Below are positions 25 to 40,336 of a stretch of DNA of 47,836 bases, one piece after another. The stretch is taken from sequence record DRR723986_18833. One strand, written 5' to 3'. Position 1 is the first letter of the stretch. Each line of letters begins with the position of its first letter. The translations under genes and the position numbers were made by a program. Under the pieces are notes generated by a model. That model was not told the DNA's origin, did no database searches, and saw only the letters and a program-made list of their open reading frames with translations.

Positions 25-1413
25 TTACATAATGGAATTGAGATACTTTTCTAGCATAGTATAACCGTCTTGAATTATATTTCGATCACTTGAATCAGAT
101 GGATCAAGTCCATTTTTCTTTTCCCATTCATCTGGCATTCCATCGTGATCTGAATCTGTGAGTGCAGGCAAACTCTTTAATTCAGGCCAGCCACCTACAT
201 CCTCCTGAGTATCTATAATTCCTGATTTTTTTGAAGTATCTGCCAAAGTGATTCTCTTTCTATAGGTACCTCCTTCATAGGTGGTAAAACCGCCTTTCGT
301 TTCATTGACTATTCGGGTATCCACCGCATCCCGCTTAGGCAAAGTAGCCCCAGCATTTGCAAGTACTAAGTCAAATGCTTCTTCAGCGGACTGCTGATTG
401 ATAGGCATTGATTCCCATGGTTTTTCAAGTCTGACATATTGAATATTTGAGTTGCCACCTTGAGGCTGCACCCCACCATCCCAATTGTCAGCCGTGACGC
501 GATCACTACCAATCATCACATTATCAGCAATAAACCATTTACCAAAATCACTGACATCGTTGCGCATGGATGGATTTGCCAGCCTGTGAGAATTTTCACC
601 CGCCTGTGTCGCAGGCCCAGGCTTATAGTAGTTGGCTACCATATTGATGATCGAAAAGGTAAATCGAGGATCCGTACCTTGTTTGTTTTCACCGCCATAG
701 GTGCTGTTATACCCCCAATTATAAACCACATTATTTCTATAATCCGTGTAACCAGAACCCGAAGCCATTCTCGGGTTTCGACTTCCATGATGCGCTAGTA
801 AATTATGGTGATAGCTCCCAAAGTTCGAGCCCCAAATACCACCGAAGCTATGAGCTCCCTTTACATGGTTTGAATCGTGCATACTTTCAGAAATAATACT
901 CCATTGCACCGTAATACTATCATTATGATAAATTGACATGGTTTCATCAACACTCCAGCTGGCCGAAATATGATCCAAAATAAGGTGCTTATTATATCTG
1001 CCTGAAACCGCATCAGCATCATCGCCGGATTCATTTCCCAGTCTAACTCTCAGATACCTTACAATCACATGATCTGCTTCGATTACCAATGGATTTTTTT
1101 TGATACAAATACCATCTCCGGGAGCTGTTTGACCAGCAATAGTGATATATGGATTCTTGATCCGTAAAGCACTTTCGAGTTCTATAGTTCCTGATACCCG
1201 AAATACAACAGTTCGAGGTTCCGATGCTTCCACAGCAGCTCGCAAGCTTCCCTCTCCACTATCGTTAAGGTTGGTGACTTCAAACACTACACCTCCACGA
1301 CCACCTTTCGAGAACTTCCCATATCCTTCTGCTGTGGGGAATGCTAACTGCTGAGAAAATGCCGAAGTGATGGCAATAATGCTTATCACTGCGATTAAAT
1401 TGATTCTTTTCAT
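25..1413 (-). CDS. Secreted pectate lyase, PL1 family (subfamily 2-like)
   Basis: Signal peptide, then AFPTAEGYG...GGRGG..VTNLNDSGEGSLR, TIAGQTAPGDGI, ILDHISASWSVDE, RNPR and a C-terminal DSDHDGMPDEWE motif, typical of Bacteroidota PL1 lyases. Confidence 0.9.
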   Translation of the reverse strand: MKRINLIAVISIIAITSAFSQQLAFPTAEGYGKFSKGGRGGVVFEVTNLNDSGEGSLRAAVEASEPRTVVFRVSGTIELESALRIKNPYITIAGQTAPGDGICIKKNPLVIEADHVIVRYLRVRLGNESGDDADAVSGRYNKHLILDHISASWSVDETMSIYHNDSITVQWSIISESMHDSNHVKGAHSFGGIWGSNFGSYHHNLLAHHGSRNPRMASGSGYTDYRNNVVYNWGYNSTYGGENKQGTDPRFTFSIINMVANYYKPGPATQAGENSHRLANPSMRNDVSDFGKWFIADNVMIGSDRVTADNWDGGVQPQGGNSNIQYVRLEKPWESMPINQQSAEEAFDLVLANAGATLPKRDAVDTRIVNETKGGFTTYEGGTYRKRITLADTSKKSGIIDTQEDVGGWPELKSLPALTDSDHDGMPDEWEKKNGLDPSDSSDRNIIQDGYTMLEKYLNSIM

Positions 1414-1459
1414 AAAAGTGGGACTTATTGTCTTTTCTTTGAATGTGAGTTAGGCACAA

Positions 1460-2755
1460 TTACTTATCAAGCCATTTCCATCTTTCTGCCCAATCCAATA
1501 AAAACTCTTGCCTATGTTTTGAGATTGTTTTAGCTCCCTGTTGATCCTTTATAAAGAGCACCGGATCTAATTTGTCACTATACCACTTATTTCCTAGCTG
1601 ATAATCATCTGGCGAAGCCTTTCCTGGCCAAGGATCCGTACTTATATAACCGCCTTCCAAGCCATCTAATTCAGCAATTGCACTTCGGGTTTTGTAGGTT
1701 CCTTTTTCTGGTTTTTTGGAGCTATACTTTACCCCATACATACCTTCGCCTAAGTAATAGCCTGGCCAGATTTGATTTTGCACTTCCAGTTCAAATACCA
1801 CCGAATCTTCTGAAATACTCAATTCTGGGCCAGTAAACCTCCATTCAATAGTTCCATAAGCAGCTACCGTATCTTCCACAGTACTTCCATCTATAAAAAT
1901 ATTTCGTGAGCTGTGATCAATTTTCTCAAAACTACCTCCCCAGCTTTCACCCATAGGGTCATTTGGATCGCCGCTCATTAGGTAGGCAAGTGACGGGGTA
2001 TCCCCCATTTTGACCCGACCATCATAATACTTGATAAAATCCTTCCCCATAGCACCTCTGCCCTGTATGTAATTGTCATAATAAGCATCACCCTTCACAT
2101 CTTTTGGAGAATCTTCATCCATAAACCAACCTCTGTAAGTTGCATTTGCTTCAATCATCCAGAGATCCGGATGATGCTCAGCTATATAAGAATAGGCATT
2201 AATGCTCCATTTCTTGTTGGGCCCTCCTATCCAATAGACGCGAATATTGTCTTTGATCTCCGGTGCATCGTGGAGTGCCTGTGCGAGATCTTCAATGCCA
2301 CCCCACACAAGTACCCATAGCGGTTGATCACTTTCTTTTTTAGCGCATTGAATAATCCATTCCGATCCTTCTGTAGCAGTAGCAAACCCTTTGAATGGTG
2401 CCGCATCTTTCTCGCCTTGCTTGGTGATATTCCGAAGTGAATTAGGGGAAGGCAGTTCTGGAGCGTGCTTCAGAAGTCGATTGTAATCACTTTCATAATG
2501 CTCAATGATATCCAGAAAATCCTTTTTACTCCCATCACCAAAAGGAGAAGAAACCAAACCTTCAATTTCGAATTGATCAGCATACAACAATAAGTGTATC
2601 ATCGATTGGAAGTCATCCGGATCTGTCCCTCCTATATCTGAACTGATCAACACTCTGGGTTTATGACGCTCGTTTTCAGCAGTATTACAGCTGAGCAATG
2701 TTAAAAAAGCAATCATTACAACCCATTCCATCCCACTAATTATATTTCTATTCAT
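1460..2755 (-). CDS. DUF1593 (Sde182-type nucleoside-hydrolase-like) lipoprotein with a distinct C-terminal domain
   Basis: Lipobox LLSC; PRVLISSDIGGTDPDDFQS..LLLYADQFEIEGLVSS, LWVLVWGG, MGDTPS, WGG motifs. Confidence 0.85.
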   Translation of the reverse strand: MNRNIISGMEWVVMIAFLTLLSCNTAENERHKPRVLISSDIGGTDPDDFQSMIHLLLYADQFEIEGLVSSPFGDGSKKDFLDIIEHYESDYNRLLKHAPELPSPNSLRNITKQGEKDAAPFKGFATATEGSEWIIQCAKKESDQPLWVLVWGGIEDLAQALHDAPEIKDNIRVYWIGGPNKKWSINAYSYIAEHHPDLWMIEANATYRGWFMDEDSPKDVKGDAYYDNYIQGRGAMGKDFIKYYDGRVKMGDTPSLAYLMSGDPNDPMGESWGGSFEKIDHSSRNIFIDGSTVEDTVAAYGTIEWRFTGPELSISEDSVVFELEVQNQIWPGYYLGEGMYGVKYSSKKPEKGTYKTRSAIAELDGLEGGYISTDPWPGKASPDDYQLGNKWYSDKLDPVLFIKDQQGAKTISKHRQEFLLDWAERWKWLDK

Positions 2756-2842
2756 ACGTAAAATTCGTGAAGTTTTGAAACTGAAGATACCATACTAACA
2801 AATAACCAAGTGATTGATGCTATATACCTGCTAATTGACACT

Positions 2843-2850
2843 CAAATGTA
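2843..2850 (-). promoter_or_regulatory. Bacteroidota sigma70 -7 element (TAcaTTTG) for the DUF1593-PL1 operon
   Basis: Plus-strand CAAATGTA matches TAnnTTTG on the minus strand, about 90 bp upstream of the start at 2755; no clear -33 TTTG. Confidence 0.5.
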
Positions 2851-3284
2851 TCAAAAAGAAAGTAAACGAAGAATAAAAAGGAAATAAACGTAAATTTTTA
2901 TCAGTAAATCCTTTGTTTATTTTTATTATTAGCTAGATTTACCCTATAAATAGCTTCAAACACTTATTATTTATTTCATATACTTTCGATATTGTGAGAT
3001 TACCAATAAAGCTATGGGGTTCGCCAGAGAGTCAAATGATAAAGTAAAGTCTGCGGGAATCACTAAACATACTAATGAACAATAAATAGATTGGCCTAGA
3101 GGGTTAGAAGGGAGAACTCTGCTGATAGCAGGAGGGCTCCCCTCTTTTTGAATGGCACTAACAATTTCCTAAGTCACAAACTTCCATTCTGTTCACAATT
3201 ACAACTCGAATTTAGATCAGATATAGGTTTGAGAATATTTTGCGAAAGCAAACAAAATGAAAAGCTTAAGTTTTCGAAATAGGT

Positions 3285-3292
3285 TACTTTTG
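3285..3292 (+). promoter_or_regulatory. Bacteroidota sigma70 -7 element (TActTTTG) for the DeoR operon
   Basis: Exact TAnnTTTG match 25 bp upstream of the ATG at 3318. Confidence 0.55.
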
Positions 3293-3317
3293 TTTTTCAC
3301 CAAGAAACAAAAATTCC

Positions 3318-4094
3318 ATGCTCCCTAAACAAAGAAAAGAAAAGATACTAGAACTGCTTAAAGAAGATGGATCCGCTAAGGTCATTGATCTGGCTAGGAT
3401 CTTTAAAGTAACTGAAGTTACCATTCGACAGGACCTGGAAAAACTAGAGAAAAATGGATTGGTAAATCGGGAACATGGCGGCGTACATCTAAAAGATGTG
3501 GAAAATAAGGTCCGTAACTTCTCTTTGGTACATCAAGACAATCTAAAGGAAAAAGAAATCATCGCAGAAAAATGCCTTGAATTCATCCAACCGGGCGACA
3601 CCATTATTCTAGACTCTGGTTCTACTACCACGGAAATCGCTAAAAAAATTGTAAACATCAAAGGGCTCACAGTAATTACCAACGCTCTGAATATTGCACT
3701 AATGCTTGGCGCTAATCCAAATATTGACATCATCATGACAGGGGGAGAATTCAAAGCACCTACCCTTTCATTGACAGGACAAAAGGCCGCAGATTTCTTT
3801 AAAGGGCTGAATGTCCAAAAACTCTTTCTAGCAACTGCCGGAATATCACTGAAATCAGGGCTTACCTATCCTAGTCTTAGTGACCTAGTTGTCAAAAAAG
3901 CAATGATTGATGCGGCAGACACTACTTATCTAGTAGCAGACTCTTCCAAAATCGGAAAAAGTGCCTTTGCTAGTCTGGGAGCGCTTTCTCTAATAGATTA
4001 TATCATTACAGATGAGGGGGTAGAAAATAAACATAAGGAAGTTTTTAAGGAACACGACATCCAATTAATCATCGCAGAAGACACATCTAAATAA
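3318..4094 (+). CDS. DeoR/GlpR-family transcriptional repressor
   Basis: N-terminal HTH VTEVTIRQDLEKLE..RxHGG; sensor domain IILDSGSTT, VITNALNIA, ADSSKIG. Confidence 0.95.
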   Translation: MLPKQRKEKILELLKEDGSAKVIDLARIFKVTEVTIRQDLEKLEKNGLVNREHGGVHLKDVENKVRNFSLVHQDNLKEKEIIAEKCLEFIQPGDTIILDSGSTTTEIAKKIVNIKGLTVITNALNIALMLGANPNIDIIMTGGEFKAPTLSLTGQKAADFFKGLNVQKLFLATAGISLKSGLTYPSLSDLVVKKAMIDAADTTYLVADSSKIGKSAFASLGALSLIDYIITDEGVENKHKEVFKEHDIQLIIAEDTSK

Positions 4095-4119
4095 GCACTA
4101 GTCAGCTATATCACACGTA

Positions 4120-5535
4120 ATGAAAAAGCAAAATATAACTTTAGGGGTAATCATTGGGAACCGAGACTTTTTTCCGGATAAACTGGTGACAGAGGCAAGG
4201 ATAGAAGTACTGAAAATGCTGGGTGAACAAGGAATTCAAACAATTATTCTGGATGAGACAGACACCAAACTTGGTGGAGTAGAAACCTATACTGATGCAA
4301 GAAAATGCGCAGACCTATTCAAGAAACATAAAGATGCTATAGCCGGGGTTTTGGTGGTTCTTCCAAATTTCGGAGATGAAAGAGGAATTGCCGATACCTT
4401 ACACCTAGCGGACTTGAAAGTACCCGTACTTATCCAAGGCTACCCAGATGAACTTAATAAGCTTAATGTAGCAAATCGCCGAGATTCTTGGTGTGGCAAG
4501 ATTTCCGTTTGTAACAACCTTTATCAATACGGCATCAAATATTCAATCACTACCAAGCATGTCGTCCATCCTACCGATCCTTCGTTTTTAGCGGATCTAA
4601 AGCAGTTTCTGGGTGTCTGCCGTGTAGTAAAAGGAATGAAAAATGTGCGTATCGGAGCAATTGGAGCAAGACCAACTGCCTTTAATACTGTACGATACAG
4701 CGAAAAAATTCTTCAGAAAAATGGAATCTCTGTAGTTACCTGCGACCTGTCTGAGATACTAGGTTACGCCAATAAACTGGACAAATCTGATCAACGCGTA
4801 AAAGATCATTTGGAGAAAATCCACAACTACGCTTCCACAGGTAAAACTCCTAGCGAATCTCTAATTCAAATGGCCAAGCTGGATGTTGTACTGAATGATT
4901 TTATGACCGAAAATCAACTGGATGCTAATGCCATTCAGTGTTGGACTTCTTTGCAGCAAAATTTTGGATGTAATGTCTGCACCAGCTCCAGCATGTTTAG
5001 CGAGGGAATGATTCCTAGCGCCTGCGAGGTAGATGTCACAGGAACACTCAGTATGTATGCCATGCAATTGGCTTCTGGCTCCCCGAGTGCATTAGTGGAT
5101 TGGAACAATAACTACGCAGATGATGATGAGAAATGTGTGCTTTTCCACTGTGGAAACTGGGCAAAATCATTTCTACCAGACATTGAAATCAGTAATGCCC
5201 CTATCCTAGGGACTACTGTAGGAGTGGAAAACACCTACGGCGCTTTGGATGGACGCACCCCGGCTTCCCCATTGACTTTTGGTAGAATCAGCACGGACGA
5301 TACCAGAGGAATCATGAAAGCTTATGTTGGTGATGGGGTATTAACCGATGATGAATTGAAAACATTCGGAAACCGAGCAGTGGCCAAAATCCCTAACCTT
5401 CAAGGTTTGATGAAGCACATCTGCAAAAATGGCTTTGAACATCACGTAGTAATGAATGCGTCACATACATCCGACGCACTTAAGGAAGCATTTGAAAACT
5501 ATATGGGATGGGAAGTATACCATCACGAAGGGTAG
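4120..5535 (+). CDS. L-fucose/L-arabinose isomerase-family protein; candidate D-apiose isomerase
   Basis: LPNFGDE, DSWCGKIS, IQCWTS, ACEVD, FHCGN and GFEHH metal-ligand motifs of the FucI/AraA family; the substrate is inferred from context. Confidence 0.8.
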   Translation: MKKQNITLGVIIGNRDFFPDKLVTEARIEVLKMLGEQGIQTIILDETDTKLGGVETYTDARKCADLFKKHKDAIAGVLVVLPNFGDERGIADTLHLADLKVPVLIQGYPDELNKLNVANRRDSWCGKISVCNNLYQYGIKYSITTKHVVHPTDPSFLADLKQFLGVCRVVKGMKNVRIGAIGARPTAFNTVRYSEKILQKNGISVVTCDLSEILGYANKLDKSDQRVKDHLEKIHNYASTGKTPSESLIQMAKLDVVLNDFMTENQLDANAIQCWTSLQQNFGCNVCTSSSMFSEGMIPSACEVDVTGTLSMYAMQLASGSPSALVDWNNNYADDDEKCVLFHCGNWAKSFLPDIEISNAPILGTTVGVENTYGALDGRTPASPLTFGRISTDDTRGIMKAYVGDGVLTDDELKTFGNRAVAKIPNLQGLMKHICKNGFEHHVVMNASHTSDALKEAFENYMGWEVYHHEG

Positions 5536-5630
5536 TTTATCATCCAAGAATCCTTCCTTCAATTGAGACCAAACTTTTCATACTAATGAAAACCAGTTTA
5601 GCACAAACTGCTAATTAATAAGAACCGAAC

Positions 5631-6455
5631 ATGACAGATAAAGATTTGAAACTGAAGTCTGTATTTCTGAGAAAAAACCTTCTCAAGTACATTTATAAAG
5701 CAAAAGCTGGTCATACAGGAGGAAGCCTGTCATGTGTGGACATCCTCAATGTACTCTATAACAGAGTGCTAAATGTAGATCCAAGCAATTTCAAAAACCC
5801 AGATCGTGATCGCTACATACAAAGTAAAGGTCATTGTGTAGAAGCCCTTTTTGTGACCTTGGCGGATCGCGGTTTTTTTCCAGAATCTGATCTGGAAACT
5901 CTTTGTCAATACCAATCCCACTACATCGGCCATCCAACCAAAAAGGTGAATGGTGTAGAGCAAAATACCGGAGCATTGGGTCATGGATTACCTATTTGTG
6001 TGGGAGAAGCAATAGCGGCTAAACTGGATAAAAAAACGCATAGAATATTTACGCTTTTAGGAGATGGGGAATTGCCTGAGGGCTCAAACTGGGAAGCATT
6101 TCTATCCGCTTCCCATTACAAGCTGGATAATTTATACGCCATTCTGGACAACAACAAGCAGCAGATTACCGGGTCCAATCAAGAGGTGATGAATACAGAT
6201 TCCCTACGGGACAAATTGGAAGCTTTCGGTTGGTCAGTACGGGAAGTAGACGGACATAACCTAGCTGAACTGGAGGAGGCGTTAAATACCGGTCCTTTCG
6301 AAGTTGGTAAGCCCAATTTCATAATTGCCCATACCATTAAAGGTAAAGGAATCAGCTACATGGAACGCGTACTAAAATGGCACCATGGTGTACCAAGCCC
6401 AGAGCAGTACGACTTAGCATTATCAGAATTAGACGCGGCGGAAGCATTAATCTAA
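5631..6455 (+). CDS. Transketolase N-terminal (TPP-binding) subunit; probable apulose-4-phosphate transketolase subunit A
   Basis: GHTGGSLS, DRYIQSKGH, TGALGHGL, GDGELPEGSNWEA...DNN TPP motif, KWHH. Confidence 0.9.
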   Translation: MTDKDLKLKSVFLRKNLLKYIYKAKAGHTGGSLSCVDILNVLYNRVLNVDPSNFKNPDRDRYIQSKGHCVEALFVTLADRGFFPESDLETLCQYQSHYIGHPTKKVNGVEQNTGALGHGLPICVGEAIAAKLDKKTHRIFTLLGDGELPEGSNWEAFLSASHYKLDNLYAILDNNKQQITGSNQEVMNTDSLRDKLEAFGWSVREVDGHNLAELEEALNTGPFEVGKPNFIIAHTIKGKGISYMERVLKWHHGVPSPEQYDLALSELDAAEALI

Positions 6456-6461
6456 CGAATC

Positions 6462-7430
6462 ATGGAATTAGATAAAATTATAGAGACAGACTTGAAAATG
6501 GGAAGCGCAAACCAGGAGGTTTTCGCTGATACATTGGAATCATTAGCCGCCATAGATAAATCGATCATCGTGGTGACAAGTGACTCCCGAGGTTCAGGAA
6601 AACTCGTTCCCTTCGGTCAAAAATTCCCGGAGCAGATTGTAGAAGTAGGTATTGCTGAGCAAAATCTTGTTGGCGTAGCTGCTGGCTTGGCATCTGCAGG
6701 AAAGAAAACATTTGCCATTTCTCCGGCTTGCTTTCTTACTGCACGAGCTTTGGAACAAATCAAAAACGATGTAGCCTATTCCGACAACCCAGTCAAACTG
6801 GTAGGAATCAGTGCGGGAGTAAGCTACGGGGCACTTGGAACTACTCACCATAGTCTACATGATTTTGCCGTGCTTCGAGCGATCAATAATATCATCATTG
6901 TCGTACCGGCTGACAATTTCGAAACGGAACAAGCTGTACTATTAGCCGCGAAGCTAGATCAACCGATTTATCTCCGATTTGGCAAAAAACTCATGCCTTT
7001 TCTATCTGAAGAAAACCAAGAGTTTGAATTTGGAAAAGGTCGAATTGTACGTGAAGGAAATGATCTCACCATCATCGCAAACGGTGAAACTGTCTACCCT
7101 GCATGGCAGGCTGCAAAAGCTTTGGAAGAAAAGCATGGGGTCTCTGCCAGAGTAATAAGTATGCATACAATCAAGCCATTAGACACAGCACTTTTGGATG
7201 AATTGGCTGCTGAAGGCAGACCAATTATCACAGTGGAAGAACACATGGTAAACGGAGGATTGGGCGAAGCCTGCGCTTCCTACCTTTTCCAAAAAGGAGC
7301 CAGAAACCGATTCCATATCATCGGAATACCAGATGAATATACCGTGACAGGTTCACAGGGAGAAATCTTCAATCACTACGGCATATCCCGAGATGGTATT
7401 TTGGCGCAGGCCGAAACACTTTTGAAATAA
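6462..7430 (+). CDS. Transketolase C-terminal (pyrimidine-binding) subunit; probable apulose-4-phosphate transketolase subunit B
   Basis: [38 protein letters not shown]; starts 6 bp after subunit A. Confidence 0.9.
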
Positions 7431-7446
7431 CAATAACCCACCCAAA

Positions 7447-8406
7447 ATGACCTATTTCAAACCCATAAAAATTGTATGCCTGCTCCTCTTCACCGCTATA
7501 TTATTCAGCTGCCAAAAGCAAAAGTCTGAAAAGCAGGATCAGCCTAAAAAAGTAGCCGTCATCGTTTCATCACTCAATAACCCATGGTTTGTAGTGCTAG
7601 CAGAGACTGCTGCCAACCATGCCATAGAGCTAGGATTTGAGGCTACTATTTTTGATTCCCAAAATAATACCGCACTGGAGACAGATCACTTTGAAAATGC
7701 GATCTCTTCAGGCTACGACGCTATACTTTTCAATCCCACAGATGCGGATGGCTCGATCGCGAATGTGAGAATTGCCAAAAAAGCTGAAATCCCTGTATTC
7801 TGCATGGATCGTGAGATCAACGCTACGGACGCAGCAACCAGTCAAATCCTCTCAGACAGCTACGCGGGATGCGTAGCTATAGGCAAATACTTCGTTGAGA
7901 AGTTGAATAAAAGTGGAAAGTACGTAGAAATCTTGGGCTTAGTCGGAGACAATAATACCTGGAGTCGCTCGAAAGGATTTCACTCTGTAGTCGATAACTA
8001 TCCTGAGCTGCAGATGGTCGCTCAGCAAAATGCTGACTTTGACAGAAACAAAGCCATGGAAGTAATGGAGTCTATTTTACAGGTACATCCAGATATCAAA
8101 GGAGTCTTCTGCGGCAATGACGGCATGGCCATGGGAGCTTACCAAGCTTTGGTGGCTGCAGGAAAGGCAGAGCAAGTCATGGTTTTCGGCTTTGACGGAG
8201 CAAGCGATGTGATCACCTCCATCGAGCAGAAAAAAATCCTAGCTACGGGAATGCAATTCCCAAAGCTAATCGCAAGAACAGCCGCCAATTATGCATTGGA
8301 GTACTTCAATGGCAAACGGGATTTCGCACAAAAAGTCCCTGTGACTGTAGAAATGGTCAATCAAGAAAATGTACATGAGTACGAAGCCTACGGAAGCGAT
8401 GAATAA
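7447..8406 (+). CDS. Sugar ABC transporter substrate-binding lipoprotein (RbsB-like; candidate D-apiose-binding protein)
   Basis: Lipobox [31 protein letters not shown] motifs of the Peripla_BP_4 family. Confidence 0.9.
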
Positions 8407-9022
8407 TAAAGCTATAAAATATGGCATTGGAGTAGTTGCATTAGCTCTTGTGGGTTATAATTCAATCTATATCCAGCCTCTAGACCAAAAGCTGGCAGAA
8501 AATCAGCAAACTGTTTTCAATGCGAAAGCCTATGTAGATGGCATCTGGAATCAGGATCTCTCAAAGGCTTACCAAGATTGCTCTGATATATCTCAACTAA
8601 TTGACAGTTTCAATCAGGACGTAAACAGCACATTTGAGAAAAATAGTCATGCCTTAGGTATTGGCAATATTGGCTATTTCCGGGTGAAAGGAGAAGGCAT
8701 AGTCAGCGCTGTAAATGAAAACAATGTGCTGCTTCAAGTAGGCAGTTCTATCATAGAAATTGAAACGGAATTCATTTTTGGAAATGCCCTCCGTGATGCT
8801 TCAGGATTGGTCAAAATCAATGATTACGAAGATACTGCGGATTTTAACAGCATCTCTGAGGCAATGAATGACAGGATTCGTCAAGAAGTAATACCAAGCT
8901 TCAGATCCAAAGTGAAAAACGGCGATTCAGTGAAGTTTGAAGGAGCTATTGAACTCAACAAAGTTCATTTGAATCTAGACCAACTCGAGGTTATTCCATT
9001 TACTCTCCAAATCTCCTCCTAG
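8399..9022 (+). CDS. DUF2291-family protein (ABC sugar transporter accessory)
   Basis: [11 protein letters not shown]...F..ISEAMN and VKFEGA motifs; lies between the SBP and the ATPase. Start moved to ATG 8399, which overlaps the end of the SBP gene; N-terminal hydrophobic anchor. Confidence 0.8.
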
Positions 9023-9023
9023 C

Positions 9024-11515: not shown

Positions 11516-11566
11516 TCGTCCAAATAGGCCAGGTTTTGAAACGATTTAACAACAGAAATTAGAAAC

Positions 11567-13060: not shown

Positions 13061-13067
13061 AATCCCC

Positions 13068-14495: not shown

Positions 14496-14536
14496 AACCT
14501 AATGTACCAGCAGCTTAAATGTGAAACATAACAGCC

Positions 14537-15982: not shown

Positions 15983-16071
15983 AGAAAGAAGAGACCCTAG
16001 AGATCCAATTAAAAGCCAATTCGGCTCAGAGATATTTTCCTTTTTAACTAATAACCCAAACCTAAATAACC

Positions 16072-17550: not shown

Positions 17551-17580
17551 GCCTCATTAAAGCATCAAACCCACCAAATA

Positions 17581-19011: not shown

Positions 19012-19136
19012 ATGTCTAACACATCAAAATGCCTAACTATTAAACCTATTGAAATTTAAAAGCAGTGAGAGCTGGACACAGTAAAAAACCACTATCGATC
19101 TGAAGTCAATTAACAATTAACACAAACCTATTTTAC

Positions 19137-21395: not shown

Positions 21396-21511
21396 AGACC
21401 ATAAATCCATCTTGGAAATAGATCAAACATGAATGAATACAAATTTTAACCATCCCAATAATCTTTAATATTAACAACAAACCCAACAAACCTATGAAAT
21501 CAACCCAGACT

Positions 21512-23711: not shown

Positions 23712-23719
23712 TAATTTTG
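23712..23719 (+). promoter_or_regulatory. Bacteroidota sigma70 -7 element (TAatTTTG) for araC-kinase
   Basis: Exact TAnnTTTG match 20 bp upstream of ATG 23740. Confidence 0.55.
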
Positions 23720-23739
23720 CACTTATCAGCAGCCAACAG

Positions 23740-24630
23740 ATGCCTCATTGTCCATTTAAATATCAACATGAAACGCTAGCGGAAGTCAATCGATTTCCAC
23801 ATATAGTAGAATTTGGATTGAGAAATAATAATTCTGTCACCTTAGATTCCTTTGAGGTGAGAAAGGCTAACTATTTACAACTCTATTATATAGTAGACGG
23901 AAAATTTGATTGGATTATTAATGGCAAAAATGAGACACTATACCCAGGTGATTCTGCACTAATTTTACCAGGTCAAGAAATAGGCGGAGCACATGGGTAT
24001 TTTGGCATTGGCACACTTTATTGGATCTACCTTAAGGTAGAAAAAATTGATTCGGAGGGGTATTTGGTTCTAGGAAAATGGAGCAGAATAAAAAAAAGTG
24101 AATGGCAAATTATTGGTAAAATTCTCGAATCAAATCAAAAACCTGTGATGCGAGCAGGTGAATTTTCCTCTATGTTTCAGGTAATGCAGTCAGAGATTGA
24201 AAACAGTGAAATAGGTAGTTTTACACGGGTGAATTACATCTTAGATTCTATCCTAATCCTGCTATGCAGACAGGTCACTAGACAGGCAGTATCTAGACGT
24301 GATTTCCCAAAATCCTTCACCAACTTAGAAGAAAGTTTGAGAAAAGATCTTTCTCATAAATGGACCGTTGAGGAGATGGCGGCTTTGATGGGATTAGGCA
24401 CGACTACCTTTACAGAAAAGGTTAAAAATTACACCGGATTCCCTCCCTTAAACTATTTAATCAATATTCGAATTTCAGAAGCCATTCGCTTGTTGAAACT
24501 GAAGGATATAAACATTACAGATATAGCATTGGAGACGGGCTTTTATTCTTCTCAGCATTTTTCTACCACATTTAAGAAGCTTACGGGCCATACACCCAAT
24601 GAATACCGGAAGAGATATACATCCAACTAA
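23740..24630 (+). CDS. AraC-family transcriptional regulator (cupin-like N-domain + HTH)
   Basis: WTVEEMA, TGFPPLNYL..IRI..A..LL, ITDIALETGFYSSQHFSTTFKKLTGHTPNEYR. Confidence 0.95.
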   Translation: MPHCPFKYQHETLAEVNRFPHIVEFGLRNNNSVTLDSFEVRKANYLQLYYIVDGKFDWIINGKNETLYPGDSALILPGQEIGGAHGYFGIGTLYWIYLKVEKIDSEGYLVLGKWSRIKKSEWQIIGKILESNQKPVMRAGEFSSMFQVMQSEIENSEIGSFTRVNYILDSILILLCRQVTRQAVSRRDFPKSFTNLEESLRKDLSHKWTVEEMAALMGLGTTTFTEKVKNYTGFPPLNYLINIRISEAIRLLKLKDINITDIALETGFYSSQHFSTTFKKLTGHTPNEYRKRYTSN

Positions 24631-24648
24631 CCACATTATCCCACGACT

Positions 24649-26169
24649 ATGGAATGTATTATTACGATAGAAATCGGAACAAACGCAGTTCGGATCTTGG
24701 CAATAGATCTGAAAGGCAATGTCATTGCTAAATCTAAGGGCTCTTACCCTACTTTTCACCGGGAGCCAGACTACAGCGAGCAGGACCCTGACCAGATGTT
24801 CATCACCATGCTATATGTGTTGAAAAACCTCCTAAGCGAGCAGATCCACCCTAAAAATCATACCGTGATTTCTATCTGTTTCAGCGCCTCCATGCATAGT
24901 GTATTGCCTGTAGATAGACATGGAGTTCCGATAGGATATGCAATTACCTGGGCTGACAATAGAGGTAAAAATGAGGCGCTTGAGTTAAAAAATTCCGGCA
25001 TAGGACAGAAAATATACGAAGCCACAGGAACTCCTATTCATCCTATGTCACCTATGATAAAAATAGCCTGGATGAAGCGATATGACTCCAAGCGATTCGA
25101 AAAAACCGACAAATTCATCACAATCAAAAGCTACATAATTCAGCAACTTACTCAAGACTATCTGCTTGATTATAGCTTAGCATCTGCAACTGGCTTATTG
25201 AACATCCACACGCGAAAATGGGAAAATAACGCGCTGGATTTTGCTGGGATAAAGGCAGGGCAGTTACCAGATTTGGTCCCTGTTTTCCATCCACTCAACA
25301 GACTACGAAGTGAGTATCAAAAATCACTCGGGTTGCCCAAAGGAGTTAAAATCATCATTGGTTCGAGCGATGGGTGCCTCGCAACTTTGGGAGGTGGAAT
25401 ATGGGAAGAAGAGAAAGCAACCATTACGATTGAAGATAGCGGTGCAGTCCGAGTTGTCGGAAAAAAGCCTTTAAATGATCCTCAACAACGAATTTTTAGC
25501 TACTTGCTGACTGACAAATACTACGTTTCGGGTGGGCCTACTAATAATGGAGGAATTGCTTTCGAATGGTTCACCAAACATTTTGGAGATTTCAAGGAAG
25601 CCTATGATATAGAATATGCCATGAAAGGACTGATCACGGAAGCATCCACAATAAAGCCTGGTTCCGATGGGTTGCTTTTCCTTCCCTATCTTTTAGGTGA
25701 GCGAGCTCCGATTTGGAATGCAAACGCTAGAGGCTCCTACTTCGGAATTAACATCAAACATGAGCGGCAGCACTTTATTCGAGCTTCTCTCGAAGGTATT
25801 TTGTATGAGATTTACAGTATAGGAAAAACCCTGGAAGACCATAAAAACTTCAATTCCCTGACCACCAATGGCAGCTTTGCCTCTATTCCATTTTGTACAC
25901 AAATACTGGCAGATCTTTTCAACAAGCCTGTAAGTGTAGGCAAAAATCCAGACAGCATTGCCCAAGGTGCATTTTTACTTAGCGCTACAGACCTAGGAAT
26001 TTTCAGCGACTTGGAAGACGCTGCCAAGTCAGTGGTAATGTCCACTACTTTTGAACCAAACTACCAAAACAATACGGCTTACATGAAATATTTTTCAATT
26101 TTTGAGCGCTTAAGTTCCAAATTACATGAGGAGTTCGCAGATATCGCAAGACTACAAAGTGAACTTTAG
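24649..26169 (+). CDS. Gluconokinase (GntK)-like FGGY protein with degenerate ATP-binding motifs
   Basis: SASMHS, ITWADNR, TGTPIHPMSP, DYSLASATG, GGPTNNGG and LPYLLGERAPIWN match GntK; it has EIGTNA, IEDSG and NGSF in place of DIGTTS, IGTSG and TGGF. Confidence 0.8.
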   Translation: MECIITIEIGTNAVRILAIDLKGNVIAKSKGSYPTFHREPDYSEQDPDQMFITMLYVLKNLLSEQIHPKNHTVISICFSASMHSVLPVDRHGVPIGYAITWADNRGKNEALELKNSGIGQKIYEATGTPIHPMSPMIKIAWMKRYDSKRFEKTDKFITIKSYIIQQLTQDYLLDYSLASATGLLNIHTRKWENNALDFAGIKAGQLPDLVPVFHPLNRLRSEYQKSLGLPKGVKIIIGSSDGCLATLGGGIWEEEKATITIEDSGAVRVVGKKPLNDPQQRIFSYLLTDKYYVSGGPTNNGGIAFEWFTKHFGDFKEAYDIEYAMKGLITEASTIKPGSDGLLFLPYLLGERAPIWNANARGSYFGINIKHERQHFIRASLEGILYEIYSIGKTLEDHKNFNSLTTNGSFASIPFCTQILADLFNKPVSVGKNPDSIAQGAFLLSATDLGIFSDLEDAAKSVVMSTTFEPNYQNNTAYMKYFSIFERLSSKLHEEFADIARLQSEL

Positions 26170-26293
26170 CCAACATATTATTCCAACGCACTATATAATT
26201 TACTGTAAATAAAAAAACTATGTTTTGAATTCATAATTCCAATCAACTGTATTACCTAGTTTTTATCCCCCAAGGCATCTATAATGTTTATTT

Positions 26294-26334
26294 AAATAGC
26301 TTCATTCACCTATTGTGGATGAAGCTATTTTTTT
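26294..26334 (+). terminator. Rho-independent terminator after the araC-kinase pair
   Basis: AAATAGCTTCATTCAC-ctatt-GTGGATGAAGCTATTT followed by a T-run. Confidence 0.85.
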
Positions 26335-26425
26335 GTTCAAAATCCTACGGAGGTTATTTTTGGAAGTATCGATAAATAGTAATTTTTAACTTGTTATCAA
26401 TAAGAATAACTCAACCTATTAAACC

Positions 26426-26476
26426 TAGTTACAGAAGTTATTTTATTAAATACAATAAAATATACTTCTGTAACTA
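26426..26476. repeat. Long inverted repeat upstream of susC
   Basis: TAGTTACAGAAGT-TATTTTATT / AATAAAATA-(T)-ACTTCTGTAACTA: 22-bp stem with one bulge and a 6-nt loop. Confidence 0.85.
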
Positions 26477-26523
26477 TTTGGTCAATGGGAGAAGTTCACT
26501 ATCACTAACCAAAACCCATAATA

Positions 26524-29500
26524 ATGAAAAAAAATTACCTGATATTCGGTATAGCGATATTTTTGCATACCGGAGGTATAACTCATGCACATGAGATGTA
26601 TACCTCACTCGAAACACCTACAGGAACTGCCTTAAATAGCATTGAATTATACTCGGAAACTCCCACTTCTATAATAGTCACGGGTATTGTATTTGATGAA
26701 ACAGGCATGCCTCTTCCTGGAGTTTCAGTTATTGTAAAAGGTTCGTCTTCTGGAACGGTAACTAATGCAGATGGAAAATATTCTGTAGAGGTTGAAGATG
26801 AAAACAGTATACTTACCTTCTCATTTATAGGCTATTCTACCACAGAAGTCATCGTCGGAAACAGAGCTGAAATCAATGTAAATCTAGAAGTAGATGAAAA
26901 ATCGTTGGAAGAGGTTGTAGTCACCGCTCTTGGTATCAAAAAGGAATCCAAGAAATTAGGCTATTCTGCGACCTCTGTTAACACTGATGAATTGGTTAAA
27001 AACAGAACTACCAACGTGATGGAATCACTGGAAGGCAAGGTAGCAGGACTAAATATCACTCCTCCTGCAGCAGGTGCAGGGTCTAGTACACAAATCAGAC
27101 TTCGTGGACAATCTGCCTTTGCAGGAGCTAATAATGCTCCCCTCATCGTAATCAATGGCCTACCTATGGATCAAGGTGCGCGTGGAGTAAATGGAAATGG
27201 GCAACAGCGCGACAGAGGTGATAATCTACAGAATATCAACCCGGACGATATTGAGAGCATGACTGTACTCAAAGGAGCTACAGCAGCAGCAATCTATGGA
27301 GCTAGAGCTGCAAATGGCGCCATTATTATTACAACCAAATCAGGGGAGAAAGGTCAAGGAATCGGCGTAGATTTCACCACTAGCTATACTTCTTCTACTC
27401 CACTAAATTTTCTGGATGAATTAATCCAAACTGAGTATGGAATTGGTACTGGAGGTGTGAGACCTAAAACGCAAGGCGAAGCCCAATCTTACGGGCAATT
27501 TGGATTCGGAGAAAGGTTAGACGGGGCACCAACGATCAATTTTGATGGACAAATGAGACCTTATTCTGCCAATCCATACCAGTTATATGATTTTTTACAA
27601 ACTGGATCAAACTGGACAAACACCATTGGGATCTCTGGTGGTACGAGTAAAGGGAGTTTCCGTGTTTCATTTTCAAATGTGGATGCGACCGGCATACAGC
27701 CAATGAATGAATACGTCAAGCGTATATTTAATGTGGGGATTAATCATAGTTTATCCGATAAGCTATCATTTCAATTGAATATAAACTATGCGAATGAACA
27801 TAACCTTAACCCGCCTCAAATAGGTACGCAGGGAGATGGGGCAATTAACTTTTTTAACCGTATGGGAATTTCCACTCCTTATGAAGCATACAGAGAAAGT
27901 GCTGTAAATCCTGAAACTGGAGCGGAGTTTCGTACAAATGGGTTTTTAGGCACTATAAATAACCCTTTCTACCCATTGCAAGGAAAGCAATATTTTGACG
28001 AGAAAAGAAGTAGATTACTCGGCACAGCGACGTTGAGGTATCAAATCACCGATTGGCTATATGCTCAAGGCAGGTTGAATTACGATGATGGCAATGCTTT
28101 CGCGGAATGGAACAGATTAAATGGCACCGGTTCCACTACTTTATTCCAAGGTGATGGCACTTATCGTGGGTCATATAATCTTTCCCAAACTACTACTTCT
28201 GATATCAATGCTGACTTCTTGGTAGGAGGAAATAAGCAATGGGAAAAGTTTTCGATGGACGTTAGTTTTGGTGGCAATACCTGGCGTACGAAATATCAGA
28301 ACATGAGTCAGGATGCGAGTAATTTTGTAGTAGCTGATCTATATTCGATTGCAAACGGGACAATAAAAAATCAGAGCTATGGTTTCTCCGAGAGTCGTGT
28401 AAACTCACTTTATGGCTTAGCTGAATTTGGTTATAACGGCATCCTTTACCTGAATTTCACAGGTAGAAACGACTGGTTTTCTGTCCTCAACCCCCAAAAC
28501 AATTCCAAGTTCTACCCATCCATTTCAGGTAGTTTTATTTTCTCCGAACTCATGCCAAGTGCCAATTGGCTTTCCTATGCCAAATTGAGAGGCTCATGGG
28601 CAGAAGTAGGAAGTGCAAATGGAGTAGGGACCTATGAGGGTTTGCTAACCTATAGTATAAATCAAAACCAATTTAATGGGCAGACACTAGCTGGAGTAAA
28701 CGGAAGTTTCGCTCCGAATTCTAATCTGCAGCCATTTACTGTTACTGAAAAGGAAATCGGATTGGAAATGAGGCTATTTAACAATCGCCTATTATTGGAC
28801 ATAGGAGCGTTTGAAAAGATAACGACCGACCAAATCTTGGATGTGCAACTTTCCAATGCCTCCGGCTATACGGATTCAAAACAAAACACAGCTTCATTAA
28901 AAAATAGCGGATTAGAATTCTTGATTGAATATTCTCCTATAGAAACCTCCAATTTCAGATGGACAAGTTCTTGGAATAGCGCATACTTGACTACTGAAGT
29001 ATTAGACGTGGGCAATGAGAGCGGCACTATGCTAGTAGTATCTTTTAACGACACAGGAAATGAGTTCCTAGGGCAATTAAGATACACAGAAGGCCTCCCA
29101 ATGAACCAACTGTATACCAGAACCTATCTTAGGAATGCAAATGGTGACATTCTAGTAACCAATCAAGGCAGATTAAGATCCACTAATAGCACTACACCAG
29201 GTGGAGAAGACACGAATGGTTTTTTGCCAATCGGAAGCTCAATACCAAAGCATACAGGAGGGTGGACGAATACGTTTACCTATAAAAAATTGAGTCTAGG
29301 AGTACATATTGACTACAAACTCGGCGGTATGGTCATGTCATCGACACACCTAAACATGCTTAGACAAGGTCATTCTCAGCTTTCCTTACAAGGACGTAGA
29401 GAGGGTGAAAATGGATTGATTTTCCCTGGCGTATATGATAATGGAGAGCCTAATACCACTGTGGTTACCAATTTACAAAGCTTCTATGCTGATTATAGAA

Positions 29501-29787
29501 ACCAGCAGATTGGAGATCCATTTATTTTTAAATCGGACTTCGTGAAACTTAGAAACGTTTCCATTTCCTATAACCTCACAGAGGCTGTAAGTAATGTGCC
29601 ATTCATGAAGTTTGTAAAAGGTCTTTCTGTCTCTGCGGCTGCAAGGAATTTAGCTATCCTTTATAAAGACTTCCCAGGATTAGACCCTGAGGCAGTGCAG
29701 TCATCCGGTGACTTTAGAGCAGGTTATGAAAACTCCTCATTGCCTACCACCAGAAATTTCAATTTGAGCTTAAATGTTAAATTCTAA
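26524..29787 (+). CDS. susC: SusC/RagA TonB-dependent outer-membrane transporter
   Basis: CarboxypepD-like N-domain, EEVVVTALG, plug [35 protein letters not shown], C-terminal Phe. Confidence 0.97.
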   Translation: [1087 protein letters not shown]

Positions 29788-29791
29788 TATT

Positions 29792-31345
29792 ATGAAATCG
29801 ATAAGATACTATATCCTCGCTATTTCTGCCATTATTTCCCTTAGTGGATGCGATAAGGATTTTATAGATATAAATACAAATCCGTACGCAGTAACGGACA
29901 TTGATCCGGCCTTGCTCTTCGCAGGGGCTCAACGAACTCCCTTGGGAGGTTATGCAGCTGAACACACGATTGTACAACAATTCGTCAATCCATATAATCA
30001 AGGAGCAACATTAGGCTTCAACTTTAATGAAGATATTGACGGGTTAAGTAATGGTAAATGGAATTTGTCCTATCCTGGACCTATCAAAAACATGAACCAA
30101 GCGATTGCTCTTTTAGGAAAGGACACTGATCGCACCAACCTGCTAAATATGATTAGAATTTGGAAAGCTCAAGCATTTATGGGACTGGTGGATTCCTATG
30201 GAGATGTACCCTATTTCGAAGCAGGAAATGCAGTAATAGACGGGGTGTTTTTCCCTGCATACGATGACGATCAAGCCATATACATTGATCTTCAGAAAGA
30301 ACTGTCAGAAGCCATTGCAGGATTGAATTCCGGAGCTGACTATGTACCCGAAGATCTTTTCTTTGGCAATAATAGTGAAAGCCCCGCGGGTAGTGCGCCG
30401 GCGCAAGTAGAGCAATGGAAAAAGCTAGGAAACTCTCTTCTCTTAAGGCTAGGAATGCGATATAGCAAGATTGACCCCTCAAAAGCTCAATCGATCGTCT
30501 CCCAAGCTTTCAATGCGGGTGTGATGAATTCAAATGAAGACAACGCCTATGTCAAGTACGATGGAACCTTATATGCACAGGGCGACAATAATAACTTGCG
30601 AAATTTTTCCTATTTCAACTATGCTGCTGAGCCTTTCGTGAATCAACTCAAATCAACTAATGATCCTCGTGCTCCATATATCATAGCTACTTTTGAGGAC
30701 CCCGCCGCAGTAGCGAACGATTTGAATCCTGATACAGATTTAGAAAATCAATTTGGCGTGCCTATAGGAGTCATTAGTACAGTTCTAGCTGATCCGAATG
30801 GTGATTACAGAGGATCGAGAGGTGGTGGTCTTAACTATTCACAAATGAATATCTATTCGGTTGCAGCCCCTGATGCTCCTGACTTTTGGGTGACTTATGC
30901 GCAAACTTCTTTGCTACTCGCAGAAGCAGCCCACAGAGGATGGGTAACTGGTTCTGCCCAGACGTATTATGAAAATGGAATTAGAGCAGATTTGAAGAAT
31001 TATGATCGATATCCACAAACGGATCCAATAACTGCTGAGCAAATTGCGGCATATTTGGAGCACCCTGATGTCGCCTTCAATTCGACTAATGCCTTGGAAC
31101 TGATAAACACTCAATATTGGGTGGTAAATATCAGAAATGGTACAGAAGCTTTTGCGAATTTTAGAAGGAGTGGCTATCCAAGCTTAAGTCCAAATCTAGC
31201 CAACAATAATTTGAATGGTGGCTTTGTACGAAGATTTTCCTATCCTGACGAAGAAGGCTCCACCAATACCAAGAATTATACCGCTGCTGCAACGGCAATC
31301 GGAGGGGATAATTTACTATCCAGAATATTTTGGGATGCGCAGTAA
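29792..31345 (+). CDS. susD: SusD/RagB glycan-binding lipoprotein
   Basis: Start moved to ATG 29792; lipobox LSGCD, INTNP, YGDVPYFEA, WKKLGNSLLLR, EAFANFRRSGYP, IFWD. Confidence 0.95.
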   Translation: MKSIRYYILAISAIISLSGCDKDFIDINTNPYAVTDIDPALLFAGAQRTPLGGYAAEHTIVQQFVNPYNQGATLGFNFNEDIDGLSNGKWNLSYPGPIKNMNQAIALLGKDTDRTNLLNMIRIWKAQAFMGLVDSYGDVPYFEAGNAVIDGVFFPAYDDDQAIYIDLQKELSEAIAGLNSGADYVPEDLFFGNNSESPAGSAPAQVEQWKKLGNSLLLRLGMRYSKIDPSKAQSIVSQAFNAGVMNSNEDNAYVKYDGTLYAQGDNNNLRNFSYFNYAAEPFVNQLKSTNDPRAPYIIATFEDPAAVANDLNPDTDLENQFGVPIGVISTVLADPNGDYRGSRGGGLNYSQMNIYSVAAPDAPDFWVTYAQTSLLLAEAAHRGWVTGSAQTYYENGIRADLKNYDRYPQTDPITAEQIAAYLEHPDVAFNSTNALELINTQYWVVNIRNGTEAFANFRRSGYPSLSPNLANNNLNGGFVRRFSYPDEEGSTNTKNYTAAATAIGGDNLLSRIFWDAQ

Positions 31346-40279: not shown

Positions 40280-40336
40280 ATAAACAAAAAACCCATACTA
40301 GTTAAACTTGTCCTGATTATGTTCTAAATGCATGAT

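Follow-up and report, generated by a model that had tools for sequence, protein, structure and literature searches.

What does a bacterium harvest with a sugar operon whose genes for uptake and breakdown lead directly into a battery of secreted proteins of PF07632 (DUF1593), a family to which no function is assigned in the literature found (subscription papers and supplements aside)? The question is raised by DRR723986_18833, a stretch of 47,836 nucleotides that is called the window here and whose host, a bacterium of marine type, is probably an Algoriphagus-like member of the Cytophagales (Bacteroidota). Its gene map (Table 1) was built from a listing of open reading frames (ORFs) together with Pfam and NCBIfam scans of all window ORFs of at least 100 aa, and statements on families missing from the window refer to these scans. 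An earlier note, made from the nucleotide sequence, had listed a polysaccharide lyase of family 1 (PL1), a glycoside hydrolase (GH) of family 140, a SusC/SusD pair, an ATP-binding cassette (ABC) importer with DUF2291, an isomerase, an FGGY kinase, a split transketolase and a DeoR regulator, and had described positions 3318-23200 as one co-oriented run. All of these genes are present, and the run is confirmed as 15 co-oriented genes, from the DeoR regulator to an orphan protein, with gaps of -38 to +125 bp between them. The list was correct as far as it went, but it omitted five PF07632 genes, the orphan protein, an AraC regulator and a second FGGY kinase. About 9 kb of the run is taken up by the PF07632 paralogues, five in number, and the orphan four-repeat protein, and the PF07632 expansion is the most informative feature of the locus.

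The locus is read here, with a probability of about 0.55, as the catabolic and side-chain-stripping part of a system that harvests D-apiose from an apiose-decorated pectin with apiogalacturonan-type side chains. Gene content, homology and synteny are observed, and the activities, the substrate and the enzymatic nature of the PF07632 proteins are predicted from them. The secreted PL1 lyase would open the galacturonan backbone, and the GH140 apiosidase, together with the secreted PF07632 battery (five members here, seven in the nearest genome, G001), would remove apiofuranosyl and apiobiosyl branches. The PF07632 proteins would act as Ca2+-dependent furanosidases, with a nucleoside-hydrolase-type metal site gripping the cis-2,3-diol of the furanose, and the four-repeat orphan protein would probably aid substrate binding. 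Free apiose would then be imported by an ABC importer consisting of a substrate-binding protein (SBP), the DUF2291 protein, an ATPase and a permease. In the cytoplasm, the isomerase would convert apiose to apulose, the GlpK-like FGGY kinase would phosphorylate apulose, and the split transketolase would cleave the kinase product to xylulose 5-phosphate and dihydroxyacetone phosphate. The DeoR regulator would control the run.

The catabolic core can be compared with a pathway that is already described. The D-apiose transketolase cluster apsI/aplK/aptAB is attributed to Carter et al. 2018 (via PMC13001218). As stated in the same source, the apiose cluster of Escherichia coli SE15 comprises ECSF_RS02670-02715 with aplK, aptA and aptB, apsI is present in the Pectobacterium cluster and missing from the E. 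coli cluster, and growth on D-apiose is reported for cluster-positive strains and none for K-12 (PMC13001218). The SE15 region encodes two short-chain dehydrogenases/reductases, a permease, an ATPase, a DUF2291 protein, an SBP, an FGGY kinase, a regulator and two transketolase subunits. The window proteins are 48% identical to AptA and 41% to AptB of E. coli. The N-terminal transketolase subunit scores 252.7 bits against AptA, compared with 168.3 bits against the other split transketolase of the nearest genome and about 100 bits against TktA/B; the C-terminal subunit is 41% identical to AptB versus 36% to the paralogue of its own lineage. In the reverse comparison, E. coli AptA and AptB score the window proteins above the paralogue of the nearest genome. 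On grounds of orthology, a two-subunit AptA/AptB-type transketolase is present.

The isomerase can be placed by way of a plasmid of Rahnella aquatilis, which was found by a tblastn search with the window isomerase against plasmids. The gene order on this plasmid is SBP-DUF2291-ATPase-permease-regulator-transketolase N-transketolase C-'fucose isomerase'-kinase, and its transketolase subunits and kinase share 72-79% identity with AptAB and AplK of E. coli. Between its aptB and aplK homologues lies the gene of a Fucose_iso_C isomerase, with which the window isomerase shares 52% identity. Since this isomerase gene is the single catabolic gene that Rahnella adds to the E. coli set, we infer that it is apsI, which makes the window isomerase a candidate D-apiose isomerase. 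Homologues of the window and Rahnella isomerases carry only generic names of the 'L-fucose/L-arabinose isomerase family' type, none of them 'apiose isomerase'. Of 80 related loci, 46 encode a DeoR homologue of 69-87% identity, whose gene in most cases immediately precedes the isomerase gene. Together, these comparisons support the catabolic core as a homologue of the D-apiose transketolase cluster, with the enzyme activities predicted from it.

An RbsB-like SBP, a DUF2291 protein, an ATPase and a permease are all present in the window cluster, the DUF2291 protein being recognisable at the family level; this family is also found in both the E. coli and the Rahnella cluster. The SBP is 37%, the ATPase 40% and the permease 44% identical to the respective E. 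coli protein, and the DUF2291 protein 24% over 96 residues. The best NCBIfam match of the SBP is RbsB, with 215.9 bits against a cut-off of 337. As a separate observation, the ribose-binding protein of Thermotoga maritima (361 bits) is a far closer relative of the window SBP than is the corresponding protein of the E. coli apiose cluster, which suggests a cross-phylum transfer of the transporter module.

The GH140 protein of the run scores 249.3 bits against PF13204, with a cut-off of 26.5, and matches the PDB entry 'Apiosidase' 8t9w at 2.8e-44 and entries 3kzs/5msy, which we take to be BT1012 of the Bacteroides thetaiotaomicron rhamnogalacturonan-II (RG-II) locus, at 3e-41. By these scores the assignment to GH140 is secure at the family level. 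BT1012 is described as cleaving D-Apif-beta-1,2-GalA (bioRxiv 10.64898/2026.03.13.711244). The best solved relative of the lyase is PDB 9buj (PfPL1, subfamily PL1_2; 1.8e-63, 218 bits), an enzyme for which activity on apiogalacturonan is stated (PMC11229556, citing Hobbs 2019). The lyase gives no Pfam match at E <=0.001, and its NCBIfam match to PelZ, at 141.8 bits, is far below the cut-off of 840.

Nucleoside hydrolases chelate the 2',3'-diol of ribose via an Asp-bound Ca2+. By analogy with this textbook chemistry, the PF07632 proteins may be enzymes in which an Asp-bound Ca2+ chelates the cis-2,3-diol of beta-D-apiofuranosides. The proposal is supported by the reported cleavage of p-nitrophenyl-beta-D-ribofuranoside by a classical nucleoside hydrolase (bioRxiv 10.1101/574913). 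The sole solved PF07632 member, PDB 2yhg, matches paralogue 'd' at 8.7e-96, and it is described as having a nucleoside-hydrolase-like fold with a preserved Ca2+ and as being thought to interact with furanoses (PMC8910321). The seven paralogues of the lineage share invariant D38, D44, D45, E62, W153-G-G, G271-D272 and W295-G-G. Extending the comparison to 45 sequences, by 38 cluster representatives at 50% identity, leaves D38, D44, D45 and D272 strictly invariant. The resulting PF07632 motif, D-x(3-12)-D-D, keeps Asp positions 1, 3 and 4 of the nucleoside hydrolase motif DXDXXXDD and has lost position 2, so that the classical motif is absent; there is also no nucleoside-hydrolase family among the Pfam matches of the paralogues. 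All window copies carry signal peptides. The family is large, with 5,829 cluster representatives at E <=0.001, many of them long multidomain proteins, and at least 2,680 50%-identity clusters at E <=1e-10. Paralogue 'e' extends beyond the recognised domains: its residues from about 455 to 752 (window 20500-21395) have no Pfam match and give Atlas feature hits of 0.94-0.96 only to clusters of hypothetical proteins. The position of the PF07632 genes inside or beside a pentofuranose catabolic operon gives the family a concrete candidate substrate.

Built from four copies of a ~134-aa repeat in which W, Y, G-Y and A-T-M positions are invariant, the 568-aa orphan protein closes the run. A search of 5.8 billion sequences yielded only 13 homologues, and in 8 of these 13 a PF07632 domain is present in the same polypeptide, which argues that the repeat is an accessory module of PF07632 proteins. 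The protein has no Pfam, NCBIfam or PDB sequence match and no usable Atlas match. AlphaFold models reached a pLDDT of 78.6 and a pTM of 0.39 for the whole protein, and a pLDDT of 70.5 and a pTM of 0.68 for a single repeat. With these moderate-confidence models, Foldseek returned no credible match in the PDB (TM <=0.15 for the whole protein; TM <=0.26 for the repeat, with 0 hits at E <=0.001).

A survey of related loci places PF07632 and the catabolic core together beyond the window. An alignment of six isomerases served as the query, and a relative was encoded in 590 of 600 candidate stretches of GTDB species genomes. The best 80 of these 590 loci, which come from Bacteroidota and Verrucomicrobiota, were taken, their ORFs were annotated by BLASTP against the window proteins, and counts were made on the 60 loci of at least 20 kb. 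The transketolase N subunit is present in all 60 loci, the C subunit in 59, the kinase in 53 and the SBP in 46. PF07632 is found within 10 kb in 27/60 loci and between the core genes, i.e., inside the operon, in 14/60, with paralogue 'd' representing the type most often embedded in related operons. Less frequent are GH127 (13/60), GH140 (9/60, at only 28-29% identity to the window GH140), SusC (8/60) and PL1 (7/60). As control queries, GH92 and UNK554 from the neighbouring locus matched in 0/80 loci. These counts support an apiose-rich pectin as the substrate.

At the level of single genomes, 19 of 24 PF07632 matches in four genomes lie within 55 kb of the isomerase: 6 of 7 in Jiulongibacter (within about 40 kb), 8 of 9 in Lacihabitans (within about 55 kb), all 5 in Spirosoma telluris (within 8 kb) and none of 3 in a Reichenbachiella metagenome-assembled genome. 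In the Oleiharenicola genome no PF07632 match was found. The loci of Lacihabitans and Jiulongibacter carry 6-8 PF07632 genes, GH140, GH140-like and PL1 genes and two SusC genes alongside the core; the Pfam scan of these two loci covered Lacihabitans, for part of its ORFs. The Lacihabitans locus of ~60 kb combines eight PF07632 genes and the DeoR-to-kinase core with a two-component system, two GH140 proteins and two proteins of DUF5060-GH140-like-DUF5605 architecture. Four of its ORFs have the window PL1 as their best match, three of them at 62-65% identity, and Pfam identifies one GH28, one GH88/105 and one DUF5123 protein; of its two SusC genes, one adjoins a Pfam-confirmed SusD. DUF5060, which in the window precedes PF07632 in paralogue 'a', also heads the GH140-like proteins in Lacihabitans. 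Judged by gene content, this combination of homogalacturonan-type backbone enzymes, a side-chain battery and apiose catabolism is how an apiogalacturonan system should look.

Two further observations from the survey concern single families. In S. telluris (L030, G003:C1:2212909-2218391), the PF07632 matches beside the isomerase are fragmented, one of them with two in-frame TGA stops, which suggests that these copies inside the operon are decaying. GH127 stands directly beside the isomerase, transketolase and kinase genes in 6 of 16 full-length Verrucomicrobiota loci, from Opitutaceae and others (L076, L078, L079, L081, L088, L092), and some members of GH127 may supply this pathway with its sugar as well.

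A bolder form of the proposal is advanced only tentatively, as it is somewhat doubtful. PF07632 might constitute a new GH family with a nucleoside-hydrolase fold, in which Ca2+ chelates the diol of beta-D-apiofuranosides. Together with GH140 and the 134-aa repeat, a module not seen before, it might form the side-chain machinery of the first recognisable apiogalacturonan system, wired to the apiose transketolase pathway in both Bacteroidota and Verrucomicrobiota.

Several observations weigh against the reading of the locus as an apiose-harvesting system for decorated pectin. On the side of the polymer, GH28, GH105 and uronate catabolism genes are absent from the locus itself in the window Pfam scans, the only neighbouring SusC/SusD pair belongs to a separate module, and the GH127 gene next door in the nearest genome is also compatible with RG-II fragments. 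Within the core, the placement of ApsI in the Fucose_iso_C family is suggested by the Rahnella operon. The kinase shares 37-41% identity with AplK and 42-43% with GlpK of E. coli, and a tree of nine sequences puts it, together with the Chondrinema kinase, outside a well-supported group of GlpK and AplK. The nearest genome has a separate GlpK elsewhere, beside a glpD-like ORF, and by these comparisons the window kinase is a GlpK-like paralogue dedicated to the operon, of a separate lineage and not demonstrably an AplK orthologue. Of the apiose pathway enzymes named in the earlier note, the AptAB-like transketolase stands by sequence orthology, the isomerase is a candidate by its Rahnella counterpart, and the kinase is ambiguous between AplK and GlpK. 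The nearest solved relative of the SBP is the T. maritima ribose-binding protein (PDB 2fn8, 4.7e-107, 361 bits; ~60% identity by a hand count on the printed alignment), and its score against the Rhizobium protein 5ibq/4ry0 is only 193 bits (7e-56), 5ibq being reportedly the apiose complex of the Carter study. The kinase and SBP assignments are the points most likely to fail.

The distribution and biochemistry of PF07632 add to these objections. The solved member is reported to be inactive on nucleosides and has been proposed to be a binding module (PMC8910321). Among 41 genomes of the genus, the isomerase is present in 3 and PF07632 in 30; the family occurs in 21 of the 23 high-quality genomes and in 27 of the 38 isomerase-negative ones, two of which have 6 and 7 matches. 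One PF07632 gene pair in an isomerase-negative genome has SusC/D and cytochrome-c/DUF7133 proteins as neighbours and no genes recognisable as sugar catabolism in its vicinity, and in the Reichenbachiella metagenome-assembled genome 0 of 3 copies are near the isomerase. The family is thus not restricted to the transketolase route, and in isomerase-negative genomes the route may be another one, or the furanose that is released may differ. In the three isomerase-positive genomes of the genus, PF07632 counts are 7, 8 and 9, the highest or near-highest values; as these genomes are close kin, they amount to one observation.

The same genes could serve other substrates. An unlikely alternative is a trimmed RG-II side-chain system, with PL1, GH140 and GH127 as in B. 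thetaiotaomicron and PF07632 replacing the other side-chain enzymes, in which only the released apiose is catabolised. It would account for the presence of GH140 and PL1 in the window and for GH127, the family to which we take BT1003 to belong, left of the window in the nearest genome and in 13/60 isomerase loci. BT1012 (apiosidase), BT1023 (lyase) and BT1003 (aceric acid release) are all described as acting on RG-II (bioRxiv 10.64898/2026.03.13.711244). However, GH78, GH106, GH95, GH2, GH43 and GH33 are absent from the window ORFs, from the scanned flank in the nearest genome and from the scanned part of the Lacihabitans locus, the coverage of GH137-139 and GH141-143 by Pfam models not being established. 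The earlier claim that none of the other RG-II enzymes occurs here has to be qualified: the Pfam scans of the window find no RG-II side-chain family beyond GH140 and PL1, but GH127 lies just outside it in the nearest genome. The extended loci of freshwater Cytophagales instead carry homogalacturonan-type enzymes: they add PL1, GH28, GH88/105 and DUF5123 and no other scanned RG-II family, a gene set that fits an apiose-decorated galacturonan and agrees with the earlier suggestion of a simpler apiose-rich pectin. Small apiosylated plant metabolites (apiin and other apiosides) are distinctly improbable as the substrates. PMC10602602 speaks of over 1,200 apiosylated metabolites, the many PF07632 paralogues could mirror as many aglycones and differ in their preference for them, and the locus proper is without a SusC/D pair of its own. 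Against this, a secreted PL1 lyase is encoded in the locus, and PL1 is present in 7/60 related loci; the GH28, GH88/105 and DUF5123 proteins of Lacihabitans and the SusC proteins of Lacihabitans and Jiulongibacter also speak for a polymer.

Doubt about the sugar or about the role of PF07632 leads to two other explanations. If the SBP bound ribose and PF07632 freed ribose from conjugates, the locus would be a variant of the Bacteroidetes ribose systems (rus), scavenging ribose or another cis-diol furanoside; this is highly improbable, even though the closest solved SBP relative was crystallised with ribose, RbsB is the best NCBIfam match (below its cut-off) and PF07632 has a nucleoside-hydrolase-like fold. 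The rus loci, as described, combine pentofuranose uptake, nucleoside-hydrolase-fold proteins and variable glycosidases in Bacteroidota, and they vary widely in their enzymes, but they are defined by one or two ribokinases, rusC/D and the permease rusT (bioRxiv 10.1101/574913). The window has neither a ribokinase (PfkB) in the Pfam scans nor a RusT-type permease, it carries PF07632 in place of inosine-uridine nucleoside hydrolases, and its sugar would be broken down by an isomerase, a GlpK-like kinase and an AptAB-like transketolase, none of which ribose catabolism needs; GH140 and PL1 would be left unexplained. The Thermotoga protein was assigned by similarity and operon context and crystallised with ribose (PMC2630998). 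The T. maritima genome, used as a control, also contains the families GH140, DUF2291 and Fucose_iso_C, so that the 'ribose' protein of this species may in turn be part of an apiose-type system. These Thermotoga genes are presumably adjacent in one operon. It is also improbable that the core serves apiose while GH140 is the sole apiosidase and the PF07632 proteins are non-catalytic surface or periplasmic binders of furanoses or glycans. Such a role agrees with the loss of the canonical DXDXXXDD spacing and with the view of the solved, nucleoside-inactive member as a furanose-interacting module attached to carbohydrate-binding domains (PMC8910321). The strict invariance of four Asp residues in 45 diverse sequences, the single PF07632 copies between catabolic genes in 14 operons and the gain of accessory modules (Sde0182_C, DUF5060 and the orphan repeat), which is usual for enzymes and not for binding proteins, point instead to catalysis.

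The boundaries of the locus differ from those given before. The earlier note had regarded positions 25-31345 as one complete locus with two uptake systems. In the nearest genome, which is 97.99% identical over window positions 1-31775, the locus runs on to the left of the lyase with two further PF07632 genes and GH127, followed by housekeeping genes (ribB and others), so that its left edge is cut by the start of the window. All seven PF07632 matches of that genome sit in this single locus, and its GH28 and GH88/105 genes, i.e., the backbone enzymes, are on another contig. On the right, the block from the AraC regulator to SusD (23740-31345) contains no glycanase and is probably an independent four-gene module beside the apiose locus, not its second uptake system. 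This view follows from the comparison with genus-mates: SusD has orthologues of 77-78% identity in four of them (G019, G034, G035, G041) in which the isomerase was not found, and in G041 the whole AraC-FGGY-2-SusC-SusD block is kept at 62-83% identity in a different genomic place, where the surrounding ~10 kb contain neither PF07632 nor apiose-type genes. Conversely, G040 has the isomerase, and its best match to the window SusD is only 33% identical. A SusC/SusD pair within the same conserved unit as the glycan genes, which defines a polysaccharide utilisation locus (PUL), is therefore lacking in the apiose locus, to which the pair is adjacent. The locus as first delimited was thus neither complete nor a single unit, and the claim of two uptake systems has to be withdrawn.

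Table 1. Features of the window DRR723986_18833, with positions, strand and the evidence for each assignment
Feature	Position	Strand	Evidence
PL1-like lyase, secreted (PL1 subfamily-2-like pectate/pectin lyase)	25-1413	-	PDB 9buj relative, signal peptide
PF07632 + DUF5060 lipoprotein, paralogue 'a'	1460-2755	-	Pfam 201 bits + 36 bits; lipobox LLSC
DeoR-family regulator	3318-4094	+	Pfam DeoRC + HTH_DeoR
Fucose_iso_C-type aldose-ketose isomerase, candidate D-apiose isomerase	4120-5535	+	PF02952
Transketolase N-terminal subunit, AptA-like	5631-6455	+	Similarity to E. coli AptA
Transketolase C-terminal subunit, AptB-like	6462-7430	+	Similarity to E. coli AptB
Lipoprotein SBP of CUT2-type ABC importer (pentofuranose-binding type, RbsB-like)	7447-8406	+	PF13407
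DUF2291 accessory lipoprotein	8369-9022	+	PF10054, 162 bits
ABC ATPase, two cassettes	9024-10544	+	PF00005 twice
ABC permease	10541-11515	+	PF02653
GlpK-like FGGY kinase, candidate apulose kinase	11567-13060	+	FGGY_N + FGGY_C
PF07632 + Sde0182_C, paralogue 'b'	13035-14495	+	Pfam 236 + 80 bits; likely true start is an ATG 33 nt downstream
PF07632 + Sde0182_C, paralogue 'c'	14537-15982	+	Pfam 248 + 120 bits
GH140 (beta-D-apiosidase family)	16072-17550	+	PF13204 249.3 bits
PF07632 + Sde0182_C, paralogue 'd'	17581-19011	+	Pfam 377 bits; PDB 2yhg 8.7e-96
PF07632 + Sde0182_C + ~300-aa C-terminal region without family, paralogue 'e'	19137-21395	+	Pfam
Secreted orphan protein, 568 aa, four ~134-aa repeats	21494-23200	+	Repeats found; no family match
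AraC regulator	23740-24630	+	Pfam
Second FGGY kinase (FGGY-2)	24649-26169	+	Pfam; gluconokinase-like, 438 bits, below cut-off
SusC	26524-29787	+	Pfam
SusD (SusD-like_2), lipoprotein	29774-31345	+	Pfam
Divergent locus with hybrid two-component regulator (HTCS), GH92 and SusCD	31750-45201		
Two tandem 3-keto-disaccharide hydrolase (PF06439) domains in one protein	45768-47162		

Signal peptides are present on all predicted extracytoplasmic proteins, and lipoprotein cysteines on paralogue 'a', the SBP and SusD. The window contains the 12-mer CATACTAATGAA at exactly two places, 3068-3079 upstream of the DeoR gene and 5579-5590 between the isomerase and transketolase genes; allowing one mismatch raises the number of matches to 4, versus 0.37 expected by chance. 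It was rejected as a regulon signal because both one-mismatch matches overlap SusC start codons. No motif joins the DeoR region to the upstream regions of AraC and SusC as a shared operator. Further to the right, window positions 31776-46611 are absent from the nearest genome. This 14.8-kb block, on both sides of which the two sequences are 98% identical, encodes a hybrid two-component regulator, an orphan 554-aa protein, GH92, SusD and SusC; a whole mannoside-type utilisation locus, separate and variable, has been inserted or deleted here at the strain level. The two-domain PF06439 protein flanks this variable GH92 locus, and the sequence is again common to the nearest genome from position 46612 onward.

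Parts of the proposed system are known from other bacteria. The Enterobacterales apiose cluster shares the split transketolase, the FGGY kinase, the RbsB-like SBP, DUF2291, the ATPase and the permease with the window at 37-52% identity, and its Rahnella version also has the Fucose_iso_C isomerase. The regulator, however, is of the SorC type there and of the DeoR type here, the window kinase belongs to a separate GlpK-like lineage, the window DUF2291 protein is only about 24% identical over a fragment, and the window operon, in Bacteroidota, runs directly into secreted glycan-degrading genes, which are lacking in Enterobacterales. BT1012 and the 'Apiosidase' 8t9w belong to the same GH140 family as the window protein, which is secreted. 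In contrast to the B. thetaiotaomicron RG-II locus of about 50 genes, which is not known to encode apiose catabolism, the window has its GH140 gene inside an apiose-catabolic operon. Cultures of B. thetaiotaomicron on RG-II are reported to leave D-apiose among their secreted products (bioRxiv 10.64898/2026.03.13.711244).

The pectin locus of the marine Pseudoalteromonas fuliginea PS47 contains PfPL1, the nearest solved relative of the window lyase and described as active on apiogalacturonan; it differs in that it is presented as 20 proteins for pectin depolymerisation, transport and assimilation, and its description, gene list aside, mentions neither apiose catabolism nor PF07632 (PMC11229556). 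The closest described counterpart of the PF07632 proteins is Sde_0182 of Saccharophagus degradans, whose C-terminal region, comprising PF07632 and PF21027, is the solved structure 2yhg (Hehemann et al. 2011, via PMC8910321). Its two-domain architecture recurs in four of the five window paralogues, and its Ca2+ site and furanose-binding hypothesis (PMC8910321) agree with the proposal made here. The window proteins differ from it in being free-standing, secreted, multiplied 5-7 fold and encoded in or beside a pentofuranose operon. The apiose transketolase pathway, GH140 and PL1 are already known. In the literature found, within the limits given above, neither a locus that joins them nor an apiogalacturonan utilisation locus is described, in agreement with the earlier statement that no characterised PUL for this substrate was known.

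The cell walls of duckweed and seagrass consist to a large extent of apiose-rich pectins, and the locus therefore bears on carbon turnover. This type of locus joins the attack on a polymer to a known apiose catabolic route and provides a testable parts list. It also offers the first concrete substrate hypothesis for PF07632, a sizeable orphan family. If the PF07632 proteins are indeed apiofuranosidases, they would represent a mechanistically unusual, metal-dependent glycosidase family, and they would supply enzymes for dissecting RG-II and apiogalacturonan as well as markers of seagrass and duckweed carbon turnover.

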